This document shows, one piece after another, positions 3,275 to 8,101 of a stretch of DNA of 17,970 nt (position 1 is its first letter; each line of letters starts with the position of its first letter). The position numbers and the translations under genes were made by a program. The notes below the pieces were generated by a model that was given only the letters and a program-made list of their open reading frames with translations, searched no databases and was not told the DNA's origin. Source of the DNA: a virus (Duplodnaviria; Heunggongvirae; Uroviricota; Caudoviricetes); the IMG/VR virus record IMGVR_UViG_2718218128_000004. The stretch is one strand, 5' to 3'.

Positions 3275-3814
3275 CTACTGTGAATGCGGGTCCGGTGCGG
3301 CAAGATGTTTTGCCATCTTATCATCCACGAACACCTTCAGCTCCAGTACCTTGTCATCCACATACTTGCGGGTTGCCAGCACGACGGCAGGGTCGATTTT
3401 CAGGGTGATATTGTCCGTGCTGCTGGTAATCAGCACCATGCGCACGGTCTGGGTGCGCCCGCTGCCTTCAGCCAGTTGCGGCTTATAGCTTTCCGGGCAG
3501 TTGCCTACGGCAATCAATGCCCCGGACTCATCAAACAGACCCACTTCACGTATCCACCAACCACCCTCATTTTCAGGGATCACCTGTTCAGCAATAATCT
3601 GGCTGCTGTTCTGCGGGTCGATATAGAGCATATTCAGCGCAGCCCGGCGTTTCTCATTTACCAGTGCCGTCTGCTTTGCGTCCGGCGTCGGCAATGCTCC
3701 GCCGCCATCGCCCACCGCCATATGGGTAATTTTTAGCGGCACACCGAGCGCGGCGGCGCTGGCAAGTTTCGCCGCGCCAATATCCGTCAGCAGGGTATAA
3801 AATTTTGTGCTCAT
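3275..3814 (-). pseudogene. H: Tail fibre protein H, N-terminal fragment (truncated)
   Basis: 179-aa ORF whose translation (MSTKFYTLLTDIGAAKLA...MAVGDGGG...ESYKPQLAEGSGRTQT...) resembles the N-terminus of the P2 H tail fibre (about 670 aa as I recall); the ORF stops at 3275 and the downstream genes G to D are absent. Confidence 0.75.
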
Positions 3815-4416
3815 GGATTCACTCTCATTGTGTCAATAACATGGACCGCCCCGCCTTCATGCGCGGTGCCGCCGGAAATAATTGTTTCGTTGATATACGG
3901 ATAGATCGTGATTTCTTCGCCAAGATAACTGGCGGCTCCCACCCAATGCGGACCGCTGGTCTGCAGATTGATGGACATGCCGATCATGTGACGGCTACAT
4001 GGTTTGGCATCGCTTATCAGTCGCTCAAGTTCCAGATAGGTATCTTCAGTGATGCCCTGGTCCTGCACACCAATGTCCAGACGAAACGTGCCCGGTGTTT
4101 CTCCGGTCTGCCACCACTCAATAATGCGGATCAGGAAGCCGAACGGCTCCACCACCCGCCGTACGGCACTGGTGGTTCCTTTGTGCTGATGAATATAAAA
4201 AGCATCCTTCACTACCTGGCGTTTGACGCTTTCTGTCCAGCCCTCGTCCCAGCGATCCACAGAGAACGCCCAGGCGAGATAAGGCAGGAAACTGACCGGA
4301 CAGGTTGCCGGATTCCACAAGTCACGCAGTGACACCTGCAGATCAGAAATCCCGCTACAGGTTTGCGCCAGTCGGCGCTCCAGTGGCGTGGAACCCGGTG
4401 GCAGCAGACTATTCAT
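3811..4416 (-). CDS. I: Baseplate assembly protein I
   Basis: 201-aa ORF (…LWNPATCPVSFLPYLAWAFSVDRWDEGW…GTFRLDIGVQ…) similar to P2 gpI; its stop overlaps the start of the H fragment (ATGA overlap at 3811-3814), as in intact P2-like tail operons. Confidence 0.85.
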   Translation of the reverse strand: MNSLLPPGSTPLERRLAQTCSGISDLQVSLRDLWNPATCPVSFLPYLAWAFSVDRWDEGWTESVKRQVVKDAFYIHQHKGTTSAVRRVVEPFGFLIRIIEWWQTGETPGTFRLDIGVQDQGITEDTYLELERLISDAKPCSRHMIGMSINLQTSGPHWVGAASYLGEEITIYPYINETIISGGTAHEGGAVHVIDTMRVNP

Positions 4417-4855
4417 CCGTTCCCCCGTTGGTCACGCTCCACTGAGTACATGATGCCGCCTGCGTTTTGTTCAGGACCACATCAGCCAGCGGTGAAGCCA
4501 GCTCCACACGTTGAACACCCTCAACATGCAGCGCGGCAAAAATAGCACTACGGCGAATATCCCGACCGAGCCGCGTCTGACTGGCGATGTACCTCTGCAG
4601 GCTGACTTTTGCCGCTGCCATTACCGGCTCTGCTTCCGGTCCCGGATAAAGAAAAATGGTAGCTTCCACACGGTACGGGATGATTTCTGCGCTGCGAACC
4701 GTCAGACGGTCAGCCACCGGGCGGACGTTCTCACTGTTCAGGGCTTTCTCCACCACATCCAGCAAGTCTTTTTCTGCTGTTCCGTCGCCTTCACGACTCA
4801 GGACAGTCAGTACCACCTCTGCAGGTGCCGGACTGGTTGCACTGGCATCCGCCAC
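4409..4855 (-). pseudogene. J: Baseplate assembly protein J, C-terminal fragment (N-terminal half missing)
   Basis: 148-aa ORF matching the C-terminal half of P2 gpJ (…VRPVADRLTV…LYPGPE…LGRDIRRSAIFAALHVEGVQRVELASPLADVVL…); P2 gpJ is about 300 aa as I recall, and the genes normally upstream (W, V, S, R ... O, P) are absent. Confidence 0.75.
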
Positions 4856-4964
4856 CCGACCGTCGGCGCTTCGGGCATGAAATTCATAAGCGGCAGTTGG
4901 CCCCGCAACAGAAAGCCCTTCAACCCAGCCGTATCAGTTCACGAAAGGCAGCATTTTTCATCTG

Positions 4965-5504
4965 ATGGAACCGGACATCAACCAGGAGATCTACGGCTTG
5001 CCCGGCTATCTTTCTGCCATTCCATCCGCCCTGCTCAACGAATCCGCCACGCTGTTCCGCCGTAAGTATTACATCAACGGCAGCCATGCAGGCTTCATCA
5101 TGTACATGACCGACGCCGCGCAGAATCAGGAGGATGTGAACAACCTCCGCAACGCGATGAAAAGCGCCAAAGGTCCAGGCAACTTCCGCAACCTGTTTAT
5201 GTACTCGCCTAACGGCAAAAAGGACGGGCTTCAGATCATTCCTCTGTCAGAAGTCGCGGCGAAGGATGAGTTTCTGAATATCAAAAATGTCAGTCGCGAT
5301 GACATGATGGCAGCACACCGCGTACCGCCGCAAATGATGGGGATTATGCCGAATAATGTTGGGGGTTTTGGGGATGTGGAGAAGGCGAGTCGAGTTTTTG
5401 TGCGAAATGAATTGAGGCCACTACAAAAGAGCCTATTAGAGCTGAACAACTGGTTAAAGGAGGATGTAATACATTTTGAGGATTATAACTTAGATATTCA
5501 ATAA
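4965..5504 (+). pseudogene. Q: Portal protein Q, C-terminal fragment
   Basis: 179-aa ORF similar to the C-terminal half of P2 portal gpQ (…KGPGNFRNLFMY…LQIIPLSEVAAKDEFLNIKNVSRDDMMAAHRVPPQMMGIMPNNVGGFGDVEKA…); opposite strand to the tail genes, as expected for the P2 Q-P operon; N-terminal half and gene P are missing. Confidence 0.75.
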
Positions 5505-5508
5505 TCTT

Positions 5509-5532
5509 AAAAACCTGCATATGCAGGTTTTT
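5509..5532. terminator. Bidirectional rho-independent terminator
   Basis: Perfect palindrome aaacctgcat/atgcaggttt (5511-5530) flanked by an A-run upstream and T-run downstream; sits between the convergent Q fragment (+) and the three-gene cassette (-). Confidence 0.5.
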
Positions 5533-5567: not shown

Positions 5568-6233
5568 TCAAAGCTCTGAGTCTACAGGCTCATGATAAAG
5601 GTTTACAGGGTAGTGTATAACCTCATAATTAAGTTGACTAACAGTGTGAGTATGTTGACTGTAAAAAACCAATGGGTTTCTCTTACAAGGAGTTATCGAG
5701 ATAGACTTACAAGCATGAATTCTTGGAGCCGATTTATCTAAATGAGCCTTCCACTTAGTCATCATTTCATTACATTTTTTATTACGCGTATATATAATTA
5801 ACCCACCACTTGCACTGTCTACAGTACCAGTGCTATATCGCTCAGTGAGTTGTGCATACCCTTTAAATAAATAACTATATGAACCAGTGTGTTTTTTGGC
5901 CTCGCCATGCCAAGTAAATCTATTCAACTTTATTGTTATATCACAATGACCTCGTTGATTATTTTCATGATATGCTTCAATTCCCATATCTTTATTTTTT
6001 ATATTTGCCAGTAAAATTAAAGTAAGCTGATCTTCTGTTAAATCAAAATTCAATTTATTTGAATTTTCCTCAATTGCCTGTACAGCAGAATCAAGCTCAA
6101 TTCTTACAAACTGTTTGAAGTTCTCATACGACTGGAGAGCAAACCTAACGCGAGTAATAGAAGCATTGATACGCTGAAGAAAAATATCATTATCAATTTC
6201 AGCTAAACTCATTGGTGCAGACATTTTTAACAT
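5568..6233 (-). CDS. Hypothetical protein, gene 3 of AT-rich three-gene cassette (221 aa); possible PD-(D/E)xK-like nuclease motif
   Basis: ORF with ATG at 6233-6231 overlapping the stop codon of the upstream gene by 1 nt (TGATG); strongly AT-rich; no family recognised by eye; segment HCDITIKLNRFTWHGEAKK contains a D...ExK arrangement. Confidence 0.6.
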   Translation of the reverse strand: MLKMSAPMSLAEIDNDIFLQRINASITRVRFALQSYENFKQFVRIELDSAVQAIEENSNKLNFDLTEDQLTLILLANIKNKDMGIEAYHENNQRGHCDITIKLNRFTWHGEAKKHTGSYSYLFKGYAQLTERYSTGTVDSASGGLIIYTRNKKCNEMMTKWKAHLDKSAPRIHACKSISITPCKRNPLVFYSQHTHTVSQLNYEVIHYPVNLYHEPVDSEL

Positions 6234-6667
6234 CAGACAATATCCTTTAATTTAGATTCATCTAATGTAAAAAAAGGAAAGACGAAGGACTTATAGTCAT
6301 ACATAATCTCCCCTGTAAATGGGTTTACTAAAGATTGATTAATTTCAGCCTCTATAACATCTTCTAACTCAAGCTCAATAGGATCATGAAAATCATCAAT
6401 AAACCAATAATTGAGTTTTAAAAACTCAACCTTTGGACTACAAAGAATTTGTATAGCTGGGTACACAACCTGCTCATATGCTTCAGGTTGTATACATCCT
6501 TTATAACCATTAACGATACTAAATAAATCTTTATAACTCAGAGCTATATTAGGCGATTTCTTTGCTCTCACACCAATTTCATCATACAAATAGCAAGCTA
6601 GCGCCCCTATATCAGGGCGCTCTGCACATATTTCTTTGATGATCTGGGGCATATCACCATCCTTCAT
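6233..6667 (-). CDS. Hypothetical acidic protein, gene 2 of AT-rich three-gene cassette (144 aa from ATG 6667)
   Basis: ORF in the track begins at TTG 6679; I prefer ATG 6667, which has GGAG 6 nt upstream. Acidic C-terminal stretch (DDFHDPIELELEDVIEAEINQ). No family recognised. Confidence 0.6.
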   Translation of the reverse strand: MKDGDMPQIIKEICAERPDIGALACYLYDEIGVRAKKSPNIALSYKDLFSIVNGYKGCIQPEAYEQVVYPAIQILCSPKVEFLKLNYWFIDDFHDPIELELEDVIEAEINQSLVNPFTGEIMYDYKSFVFPFFTLDESKLKDIV

Positions 6668-6679
6668 TGCTGACTCCAA

Positions 6680-7786
6680 TTATAATATCAGCTTTGTGAG
6701 GGTTTCGAAATCATCTTTGGATATACATTTGCTTAATATAGCATAATTGACAGGAGAGCACCCACTACCACCTAAATGTCTGCGTAATGTTCCTGGAATG
6801 ATAAGCTCTACACTATCCGCCAATTGCAATTTTGGATTATTCCTATCTACTCTAATTCCAATACGATATAAACCAATATTACCTACAGCTTTAATGCCCT
6901 CTTTATTAAACAGATCATCACGCAAGTCTTTCTTAGCCACATTTTTCTTTTCCTTATGAGTGGTTCCCTCATAAGTTAAAAATGACAAATCGAACACCTT
7001 ATAACTTAAACTTGAATATGGCATTACATTTTGCTTGAAAATTGGCTCAATTAATGGATAAAAATCCTTTTCCGATGAATTAAATTGATAACCTGCGCAA
7101 TTATATAACTCACGAATAAAATTCGTTTTCGCAAAAACGATATTATCACCAACAACATTACCATTAGTATCAATTAATACATGGATTTTATTTGAAGCTG
7201 AATCTAATATACACACATCAAAACACTGACGTTTTTCTTTTCTCTTCGCAATGATTTCATCAAACTGTTTGTATGCTGCTAACTTTGACGGAGGGACTTT
7301 CTCTCTTACAACCAGCTCCCTGATAGATGAAAATACCAAAATAGACTGAGTATTTTGCTTAGAGTAATTAACAAGCTCAAGTTGATTTTTAATAGCATGC
7401 TGTAATTGAACATCATCAACAATCGTTTCGACTAATGATGTTGGTTGCTTCATCATATTCCATTGGCGAGCATATCTATCATCAAGTAATTTAATTACTT
7501 GACTATCTACAGACAAACTAAATATTGCTTTTTCACCATAAACAACCTGCCCAAAGACTAAATCATTTACACTTGCAATGATTTTGTCAAATTTTTGCCT
7601 ATCTTTCTTTTTAAAATCAATGAGGCTTTCTAGTATTTTGTCGTTTGTTGCTTCACGCCCTCTACCTGTAGGTAGCCCTAAAGAAGCAATAATTGGTCTG
7701 GCGATATGCCACGTAAAACGTTCAGTTAAGGCTAAGATCGACTTTAACTCAAAGTCAGAAAGCACCACTGGGACACCACTTGTCAT
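6680..7786 (-). CDS. Hypothetical protein, gene 1 of AT-rich three-gene cassette (368 aa from ATG 7786)
   Basis: Track ORF starts at GTG 7795; ATG 7786 has AGGTG 6 nt upstream. Stop codon directly abuts the gene 2 start region. No Walker A, HUH or other motif recognised by eye. Confidence 0.6.
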   Translation of the reverse strand: MTSGVPVVLSDFELKSILALTERFTWHIARPIIASLGLPTGRGREATNDKILESLIDFKKKDRQKFDKIIASVNDLVFGQVVYGEKAIFSLSVDSQVIKLLDDRYARQWNMMKQPTSLVETIVDDVQLQHAIKNQLELVNYSKQNTQSILVFSSIRELVVREKVPPSKLAAYKQFDEIIAKRKEKRQCFDVCILDSASNKIHVLIDTNGNVVGDNIVFAKTNFIRELYNCAGYQFNSSEKDFYPLIEPIFKQNVMPYSSLSYKVFDLSFLTYEGTTHKEKKNVAKKDLRDDLFNKEGIKAVGNIGLYRIGIRVDRNNPKLQLADSVELIIPGTLRRHLGGSGCSPVNYAILSKCISKDDFETLTKLIL

Positions 7787-7849
7787 AACATGCACCTAGT
7801 CAACCCAAAAGCAATTGAAAATCGCTCTTGTCTTAATTTTTTCCATCAA

Positions 7850-7936: not shown

Positions 7937-7955
7937 CGAGCGCGCGCTCGTATCC
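7937..7955 (-). other. cos-like sequence (possible cohesive-end site of the P2/186 family)
   Basis: Minus strand reads GGCGTGGCGGGGATACGAG; the first 13 nt match the 186/P2 cohesive-end sequence as I remember it (GGCGTGGCGGGGAAAGCAT for 186). Orientation agrees with the prophage orientation. Recalled from memory, not verified. Confidence 0.3.
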
Positions 7956-8007
7956 CCGCCACGCCTGCCCGCTTTATGGAGCGATTTTCATGCACCTGCA
8001 TGACATA

Positions 8008-8034
8008 AGCAAAAGCCCGCCAGTTCTGGCGGGC
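8008..8034 (-). terminator. Rho-independent terminator for the leftward SOS-regulated transcript
   Basis: Stem gcccgcc (8015-8021) / ggcgggc (8028-8034) with loop agttct; on the minus strand the hairpin is followed by a T-run (plus-strand A-run at 8011-8014); about 70 nt downstream of the 88-aa ORF. Confidence 0.45.
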
Positions 8035-8101
8035 CTCAGCGAAAACGATCCTCAAACGATCATGCGATCTCATGCAGCATAGACATGCACCCAGCCGGTT
8101 G

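Follow-up and report, generated by a model that had tools for sequence, protein, structure and literature searches.

Nuclease effectors are common in bacterial immunity. In the STAND/NLR proteins (Avs, bNACHT) and in Shedu (SduA), a PD-(D/E)xK nuclease serves as an exchangeable effector mounted on varied sensors, and a comparable arrangement is suggested here for a three-gene cassette in a viral DNA record of 17,970 nucleotides, IMGVR_UViG_2718218128_000004, the whole of which is referred to below as the window. The window is a P2-like prophage of the Escherichia coli type, and the cassette consists of three tightly packed minus-strand genes in the order g1–g2–g3, with g3 last:

6680 to 7786, minus strand: g1, 368 residues by the RefSeq start, isoelectric point (pI) 9.0, WP_021580613, phrog_12777
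6233 to 6667, minus strand: g2, 144 residues, pI 4.4, WP_021580614, phrog_11490
5568 to 6233, minus strand: g3, 221 residues, ATG start, WP_021580615 ("hypothetical protein"), phrog_9664

The stop codon of g2 and the start codon of g3 overlap by 1 nucleotide (TGATG), and 12 nucleotides separate g1 from g2. The mechanical open reading frame of g1 reaches further, to a GTG at 7795. The best explanation of the findings is that the three genes form a single operon and that the cassette is a candidate anti-phage system, used in competition between viruses and carried as cargo in a variable hotspot of the prophage; a probability of roughly 0.6 is assigned to this explanation as a whole. By analogy with STAND/Avs, Shedu and McrBC, the cassette would work as a nuclease-effector system; it belongs to none of these families, nor to those of RexAB and PrrC. 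What is new is the g3 family and the architecture of the system, within a known kind, nuclease-based defence. A new PD-(D/E)xK family would by itself be unsurprising.

The resemblance to STAND/NLR proteins extends to the g3 domain itself, which is found on NACHT+HEAT and NB-ARC+TPR proteins. The differences from these proteins and from Shedu lie in the placement of the domain at the C-terminus, after the repeats, and in its family, since by Pfam and PADLOC it is not Mrr_cat, Cap4 or DUF4263. In most lineages, moreover, g3 stands as a protein of its own and would depend on the g2 adaptor domain.

In the classic RexAB exclusion system of phage lambda, RexA is the sensing component. Like RexAB, the cassette is prophage-encoded, and the larger component of each may be a structural relative of RdgC: RexA has been reported to bind DNA and to be a structural relative of RdgC (PMC11077077), and the predicted structure of g1 matches the RdgC fold. 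The two systems differ in that the cassette holds g1, g2 and g3 only, with no RexB-like membrane protein, and in that its predicted effector is a soluble nuclease; none of the three genes matches a membrane-protein family, and the putative three-gene operon is closed by probable terminators. In addition, g1 has no sequence-profile similarity to RexA.

In PrrC–EcoprrI a second nuclease gene accompanies a complete restriction system, as g3 does where it follows Type ISP and HsdR genes that carry the g2 domain. PrrC itself combines an ABC-type ATPase with an anticodon nuclease in one fusion protein. The folds in the two cases are unrelated, and the link in systems of the cassette type is a dedicated fused adaptor domain.

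The interval between gpA and the portal gene is a hotspot of P2 prophages and a reservoir of defence systems (Rousset et al. 2022). The cassette appears in Table S5A of that study (WP_021580613/4/5) and as system 91 of Table S5B, with 36 occurrences and no domain. Another entry of the same study, the validated Rst_3HP ("hp + hp + hp", E. coli E1114), likewise comprises three genes without recognisable domains in the P2 hotspot, and was considered as a possible identity for the cassette. It was rejected: the best blastp match had an E-value of 0.74, there was no match by hidden Markov model (HMM) or PADLOC, and the proteins are unrelated, with 333, 359 and 227 residues as against 368, 144 and 221 in the cassette.

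The g3 product as a candidate nuclease

A sequence-only reading of the window had pointed to a possible PD-(D/E)xK signature in the 221-residue protein, an Asp followed about 13 residues later by E-x-K, and had called the signal weak, as a single short motif. Both statements hold. The residues are D98 and E111-A-K113, located within the open reading frame of g3, and the codons of interest are as follows:

5892 to 5948, minus strand: HCDITIKLNRFTWHGEAKK, g3 residues 96–114
5940 to 5942, minus strand: D98, 13 residues before E111-A-K113 (5895 to 5903)
5901 to 5903 and 5895 to 5897, minus strand: E111 and K113, respectively, in strand 3 of the model
6030 to 6035, minus strand: E67-D68, where core helix 1 begins; E67 does not vary within the family
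5835 to 5852, minus strand: Q128-L-T-E-R132-Y133, on the helix after the E-x-K strand

When the g3 protein was shuffled 5000 times, the loose pattern D-x(8–20)-[DE]-x-K turned up in 55% of the sequences and the exact spacing in 4.5%. The bare motif is not beyond chance; its significance comes from conservation and predicted structure, and from those alone.

Close homologues, identified in a word-indexed search (38 clusters, all Enterobacterales), number 38, and D98, E111 and K113 are invariant in all of them. An exhaustive HMM search with the alignment of these homologues shows that the family is large, with 578 representatives of clusters at 50% identity, 138 of which score below 1e-30. Alignments of 135–149 such representatives, which are 25–40% identical to the query, have a mean column identity of 21%. 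Even at this distance there is no variation at E67, G95, D98, E111, K113 or Y133, conservation of Q128 and R132 reaches 99%, and W108 and G125 are invariant or at least 98% conserved. Further conserved histidines are H89, H96, H196 and H207. The family signature can be written as sEDxLT, GGHxD, W-x-G-E-A-K, Q-L-x-x-R-Y and GGLIIY, plus His196 and His207.

An AlphaFold2 model of g3 (predicted local distance difference test score, pLDDT, 90.3; predicted template-modelling score, pTM, 0.86) comprises helices at 10–32, 36–56 and 67–76, strands at 85–88, 99–103 and 106–115, a helix at 119–131, a strand at 142–149 and a helix at 154–171, followed by three strands. The predicted αβββαβ core extends from the helix that begins at residue 67 to the strand that ends at 149. 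In the model E67 opens the first core helix, D98 lies just before strand 2, E111-x-K113 is in strand 3, and Q128, R132 and Y133 are on the helix that follows; the putative active-site residues occupy the canonical PD-(D/E)xK positions, and E67 is predicted to be an additional ligand of metal or substrate. Thus both features that the sequence-only reading had tied to a genuine nuclease, motif residues conserved among homologues and the core of a restriction endonuclease, are found, the latter in a predicted structure.

Foldseek searches with the model, a check that had been proposed, gave PD-(D/E)xK nucleases as the top named matches, all of them weak (E ≥ 1e-3). In the PDB the best match was McrC (E 4e-3, probability 0.84), and the other top neighbours were Bax1, AF1548, the HerA-associated nuclease, the R2 endonuclease domain, BspD6I, Cdn1, Hjc, Cap4, MGME1 and HincII. 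In BFVD, a library of viral predicted structures, the top named matches were "Restriction endonuclease", "PD-(D/E)XK nuclease superfamily protein", MGME1-like and Holliday junction resolvase, with probabilities of up to 0.96. A Pfam scan of 135 g3 members taken singly gave sub-threshold matches only, to PDDEXK_9 (6 members), HamA, PDDEXK_6 and Mrr_cat, and in PHROGs g1, g2 and g3 fall only in families of unknown function.

With McrC, Bax1, AF1548, Hjc and the Cap4 domain the modelled g3 shares the core, the acidic residue of helix 1, the Asp at strand 2 and the E-x-K in strand 3. It differs from these PD-(D/E)xK nucleases in having two N-terminal helices that are absent from its neighbours, and sequence profiles connect it with none of the families described in the superfamily. 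Taken together, the conservation and the model make a nuclease fold with catalytic competence highly probable for g3, and its product is very probably an enzyme that cuts DNA in the manner of a restriction endonuclease. Should g3 belong to the PD-(D/E)xK superfamily, it constitutes a new family within it.

The g2 domain and its partners

Loci were gathered through g3 from species-representative genomes (31) and metagenomes (53), through g1 from viral contigs (27), and also from phage records and by exact look-up. All open reading frames in these loci were scored with HMMs of g1, g2 and g3, and the g2 profile was iterated by rebuilding it from distant free copies. The order g1–g2–g3 is found in 27 of 27 viral contigs reached through g1, in 17 of the 31 genome loci, and in about 24 of the 53 metagenome loci. 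Alphaproteobacteria and Burkholderiales are among the taxa with this order; the genome loci of this type include Sphingomonadales, Rhizobiales, Rhodobacterales, Acetobacter, Burkholderia/Paraburkholderia and Azonexus. Moraxella phage Mcat13 has the cassette as well, as do a P2-like contig from Klebsiella and a contig from Acinetobacter.

The g2 sequence evolves fast (11 clusters in a word search) and defines an undescribed domain of ~130 residues that is either free or the C-terminus of the protein upstream of g3; where g1 is missing, it forms the last ~130 residues of that protein. Free copies mostly have a pI of 4.3–5.7, the values for some fused domains are 7.2 and 9.6, and that of g3 is 8.3. 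A full-length g2 domain ends at the start of g3 in every locus with an intact, unfused g3, namely 28 of 28 genome loci and 46 of 46 metagenome loci (74 loci). The sole exceptions to the pairing are two near-identical metagenomic contigs (L085 and L086, ~3838–4275) with an N-terminally truncated remnant of g3 that begins near family residue 61; neither g2 nor g1 precedes it, and this g3 is probably a decayed copy. The earlier suggestion that the acidic 144-residue protein is a partner or regulator of the nuclease gains support from this obligate position, since g2 always lies directly upstream of unfused g3 homologues. It may act as an inhibitor, a tether or an activator.

The proteins that carry the g2 domain are diverse. 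One group consists of Type ISP restriction-modification enzymes of 1756–1836 residues (~16 full-length loci and one cut by a contig end; E 1e-16 to 9e-24), which combine Mrr_cat_2, helicase, coupler, methylase and Type_ISP_C domains. The canonical PADLOC model stops at residue 1644 of 1786, which marks the g2 domain as an addition to the Type ISP enzyme. It is found also on Type I HsdR (E 1e-20), on ResIII helicases of ~1000 residues (E 3e-21), on a ThsB-like TIR protein (E 4e-42), on a DUF6197 protein, and on FeeM-like acyltransferases at three loci (E 6e-25). In the last group a FeeM-like N-acyl amino acid synthase with a C-terminal g2 domain precedes g3 (L019, 5433–6983; L072, 24–1184; L073, 755–1918); this partner has no obvious tie to DNA or to known immune signalling. 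The interchangeable partners are for the most part DNA binders, DNA translocases or immune signalling proteins, and g2–g3 appears as a portable two-part module that many bacteria have joined to restriction enzymes and other immune sensors. A back-up role is suggested by the joining of g2 to restriction enzymes equipped with a nuclease of their own.

A g3 domain without detectable g2 is the C-terminal module of NACHT+HEAT proteins of 855–1226 residues from cyanobacteria and other lineages, and it is C-terminal also in an NB-ARC+TPR protein. The assignment of g3 as the nuclease effector of the cassette, made in the sequence-only reading, is supported by its place in these STAND proteins. That the NACHT fusions carry the domain without g2 suggests that g2 is not strictly needed to keep the nuclease harmless. 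In a metagenomic protein of 356 residues (P0197), a g3-type domain at 27–214 stands upstream of a LexA-type Peptidase_S24 domain at 234–349, a hint that in one lineage the trigger may be RecA or DNA damage. In the NACHT, NB-ARC and S24 fusions the match starts at profile position 32–42, and they therefore lack the first of the N-terminal helices seen in the free proteins.

The g1 protein and its predicted RdgC-like fold

Homologues of g1 from a word search form 37 clusters, all Enterobacterales, and their C-terminal half is highly conserved. Whole-chain Foldseek comparison of the AlphaFold2 model (pLDDT 86.3) matched RdgC (2owl, E 4.8e-6, probability 1.00, 346 aligned columns; 2owy, E 4.5e-5), with CENP-N and CENP-L next. 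An RdgC-like fold is thus predicted for g1 from its modelled structure; Pfam gave no RdgC match. RdgC is a ring-shaped, non-specific DNA binder. Its modulation of RecA-dependent recombination has been reported (PMC11077077).

Distribution and association with defence

The cassette is present in 20 of 5426 complete E. coli genomes as two variants, with 99.8% and 84% identity, and is annotated in every case as three hypothetical proteins. In a prophage with the 84%-identity variant a gene of the LA2681 HEPN family (L002, 7894–9471) adjoins the cassette, and two candidate defence cargos therefore lie side by side. Seven Stx1a-converting lambdoid phages carry the cassette between the Q antiterminator and stx1AB; in one of them, Stx1_499 (L039, 3475–5582), a diverged g1–g2–g3 is transcribed in the opposite direction, and its g3 is 36% identical to that of the window. 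The association with defence consists of the hotspot position and of the attachment of g2–g3 to restriction-modification, TIR and STAND proteins. Searches of the available literature found no account of the cassette or its three proteins, which are "hypothetical" in RefSeq and yet occur in the best-validated prophage defence hotspot and beside the Shiga-toxin genes of Stx1 phages.

Proposed mechanism and alternatives

In the mechanism proposed here, g3 would be a metal-dependent PD-(D/E)xK endonuclease and the effector of the cassette, with an active site formed by E67, D98 and E111-x-K113 and with Q128, R132 and Y133 on the following helix. The small acidic g2 would serve as an adaptor that pairs with the nuclease, possibly by binding to its N-terminal helices, and couples it to a sensing protein. 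In this cassette the sensor or loader would be g1, which probably binds phage DNA or an intermediate of replication or recombination. Upon infection the nuclease would be released, recruited or oligomerised on DNA, where it would cut the DNA and stop the infection. Computation shows the open reading frames, the conserved residues, the predicted folds, the constant adjacency of g2 and g3, the range of partners and the hotspot position; nuclease activity, contact between g2 and g3, sensing of DNA by g1 and the defence phenotype are inferred.

Several results weigh against this explanation. No PDB structure matched the g3 model below E 1e-3, and the template-modelling (TM) scores were 0.2–0.35. 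Pfam (2025), NCBIfam (June 2026) and PADLOC (2023) gave no match at threshold for g1, g2, g3, 135 relatives of g3 or nine g2 domains. Sequence-profile searches of the PDB with two g3 alignments yielded noise only, and hhalign returned a probability of 0.2% for the g3 family against six Mrr_cat_2 domains of the partner Type ISP enzymes. For g1 the TM scores with RdgC are just 0.35–0.42, RexA is absent from the top 50 Foldseek matches, and hhalign gave the g1 family a probability below 1% against both E. coli RdgC and lambda RexA. No g2–g3 fusion protein, which would prove physical contact, was found among 223 family members. Finally, system 91 is outside the set cloned by Rousset et al. (2022).

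A different logic, that of a guard or a toxin–antitoxin pair, is unlikely, though likelier than the other alternatives. Here g3 would be a latent toxic nuclease held by g2, the partner protein would be guarded, and an attack on the partner by a phage anti-restriction protein or DNA mimic would release the nuclease and abort the infection. A precedent exists in the PrrC anticodon nuclease, which is kept latent by the EcoprrI restriction enzyme. The position of g2 upstream of g3, its overlap with the g3 start, and the opposite charges of an acidic g2 (in most free copies) and a basic g3 are all compatible with a type II toxin–antitoxin pair, and a second nuclease makes most sense as a back-up where g2 is joined to a complete restriction enzyme with its own Mrr-type nuclease. 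It is difficult, however, to reconcile this logic with the NACHT–HEAT fusions, which hold the nuclease without detectable g2, with the neutral or basic character of some fused g2 domains, or with a g2 that has no recognisable DNA-binding autoregulatory domain or family match.

The remaining alternatives are far less probable. The PD-(D/E)xK fold includes RNA-cleaving members, and g3 might act on RNA such as tRNA or mRNA and halt translation rather than cut genomes, as the analogy with the RNase of PrrC and the extra conserved H89, H96, H196, H207, R132 and Y133, outside the minimal motif of a DNA nuclease, would allow; this is very unlikely in view of the top structural neighbours, which are all DNA nucleases, and of the partners, most of which bind or translocate DNA (the RdgC fold, Type ISP, HsdR and ResIII helicases). 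No better a prospect is a role outside immunity, in which the cassette would be an accessory recombination, replication or DNA-processing module serving the prophage, or a selfish addiction module stabilising the element. The reported effect of RdgC on recombination and the LexA-type S24 fusion, with its hint of a DNA-damage link, would fit such a role. It accords poorly with the P2 defence hotspot, with the other defence gene adjoining the cassette in a related prophage (the HEPN gene), with recurrence in an unrelated phage family, where the cassette occupies a moron site between Q and stx1, with attachment of the module to immune components such as NACHT STAND proteins, a ThsB-like TIR protein and restriction-modification enzymes, and with the low G+C content and patchy distribution typical of exchangeable defence cargo. 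That the motif arose by chance, and that g3 is no nuclease or a catalytically dead structural or DNA-binding domain, is largely refuted. The frequency of the bare motif among shuffled sequences and the want of a significant match to any database family or solved structure speak for it, but four catalytic residues are invariant in ~150 highly diverged homologues, they lie at canonical secondary-structure positions in a high-confidence model, and nuclease neighbours are enriched in two independent structure libraries.

A more general proposal can be put forward, though only tentatively. The pair g2 and g3 may constitute an undescribed, portable module of adaptor and latent nuclease that serves immune or DNA-tracking proteins of unrelated kinds, namely an RdgC-fold DNA ring, Type ISP and Type I restriction enzymes, helicases, a Thoeris-like TIR protein and FeeM-like acyltransferases. 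As an effector of the second line, it would be set off once the sensor of the first line meets phage DNA or comes under attack from phage inhibitors. If true, this would be a general plug-in mechanism for layered immunity, of which the ~130-residue adaptor would be the defining new part. The pairing offers a testable hypothesis, that one effector is shared by restriction enzymes, TIR proteins, STAND proteins and an RdgC/RexA-like DNA binder, and it could help to explain what RexA-type proteins sense.

Prophage setting

The G+C content of the cassette island is 31–37%, versus ~53% in its flanks, and the island is placed between gpA and the C-terminal end of the portal gene. The features of the prophage that frame it are as follows:

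9775 to 12159, minus strand: replication endonuclease gpA
minus strand of the prophage: Dam methylase and CII-like regulator genes
plus strand of the prophage: CI repressor and integrase genes
4965 to 5504, plus strand: C-terminal end of the portal gene, convergent with g3
5509 to 5532, both strands: palindromic hairpin with A-run and T-run, between the convergent portal gene and g3
8011 to 8035, minus strand: GC-rich hairpin with T-run, upstream of g1

The hairpin at 5509–5532 (−15.1 and −15.7 kcal/mol on the two strands; z-scores −5.6 and −5.1) is a probable bidirectional intrinsic terminator that closes the cassette. The hairpin at 8011–8035 (−23.8 kcal/mol, z-score −5.2) probably terminates the upstream prophage transcript, and the cassette would therefore be its own transcription unit. 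A consensus promoter scan found sites no commoner than in shuffled sequences, and for that reason no promoter is claimed.

What survives of the prophage is a remnant, in which part of baseplate J (its C-terminal portion, 4409–4855), gpI (3811–4416) and only the N-terminal domain of the tail fibre (3275–3814) adjoin the last 179 portal codons, with the junction near 4923/4924 (3275–5504 overall); given this J'::'Q junction, the terminase, capsid and most tail genes are missing. The junction occurs in 0 of 5426 complete E. coli genomes, and the cassette is intact despite the reduced state of the prophage. A host Asp-Al_Ex transporter gene lies at 935–2620.

Two other low-GC segments may be cargo. 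Between the cassette and gpA, a two-gene unit on the plus strand (8874–9703, 32–35% GC) encodes a 124-residue protein (phrog_18061, unknown function) and a 152-residue protein with hydrophobic segments and a weak match to the RADAR accessory protein RdrD (E 0.0017). PADLOC gave no match for the unit, which could be a further cargo of the hotspot or a pair of exclusion genes. Between the CI repressor and integrase genes, a gene for a 325-residue protein (15853–16830, plus strand, ~31% GC) has a weak DUF2207_C match only and no match in PADLOC. In the related prophage L001 an AAA ATPase occupies the equivalent position, which suggests a second variable cargo site.

The segment at ~7940–8010 upstream of g1 (GGGCAGGCGTGGCGGGGATACGAGCGCGCGC) has a cos-like look and, by eye, is close to the reverse complement of a hotspot clone in Table S2A of Rousset et al.; the P2 cos 19-mer was not found within 3 mismatches. 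If this segment is cos, the cassette, in contrast to old/tin of P2, has cos on one side and the portal gene on the other.

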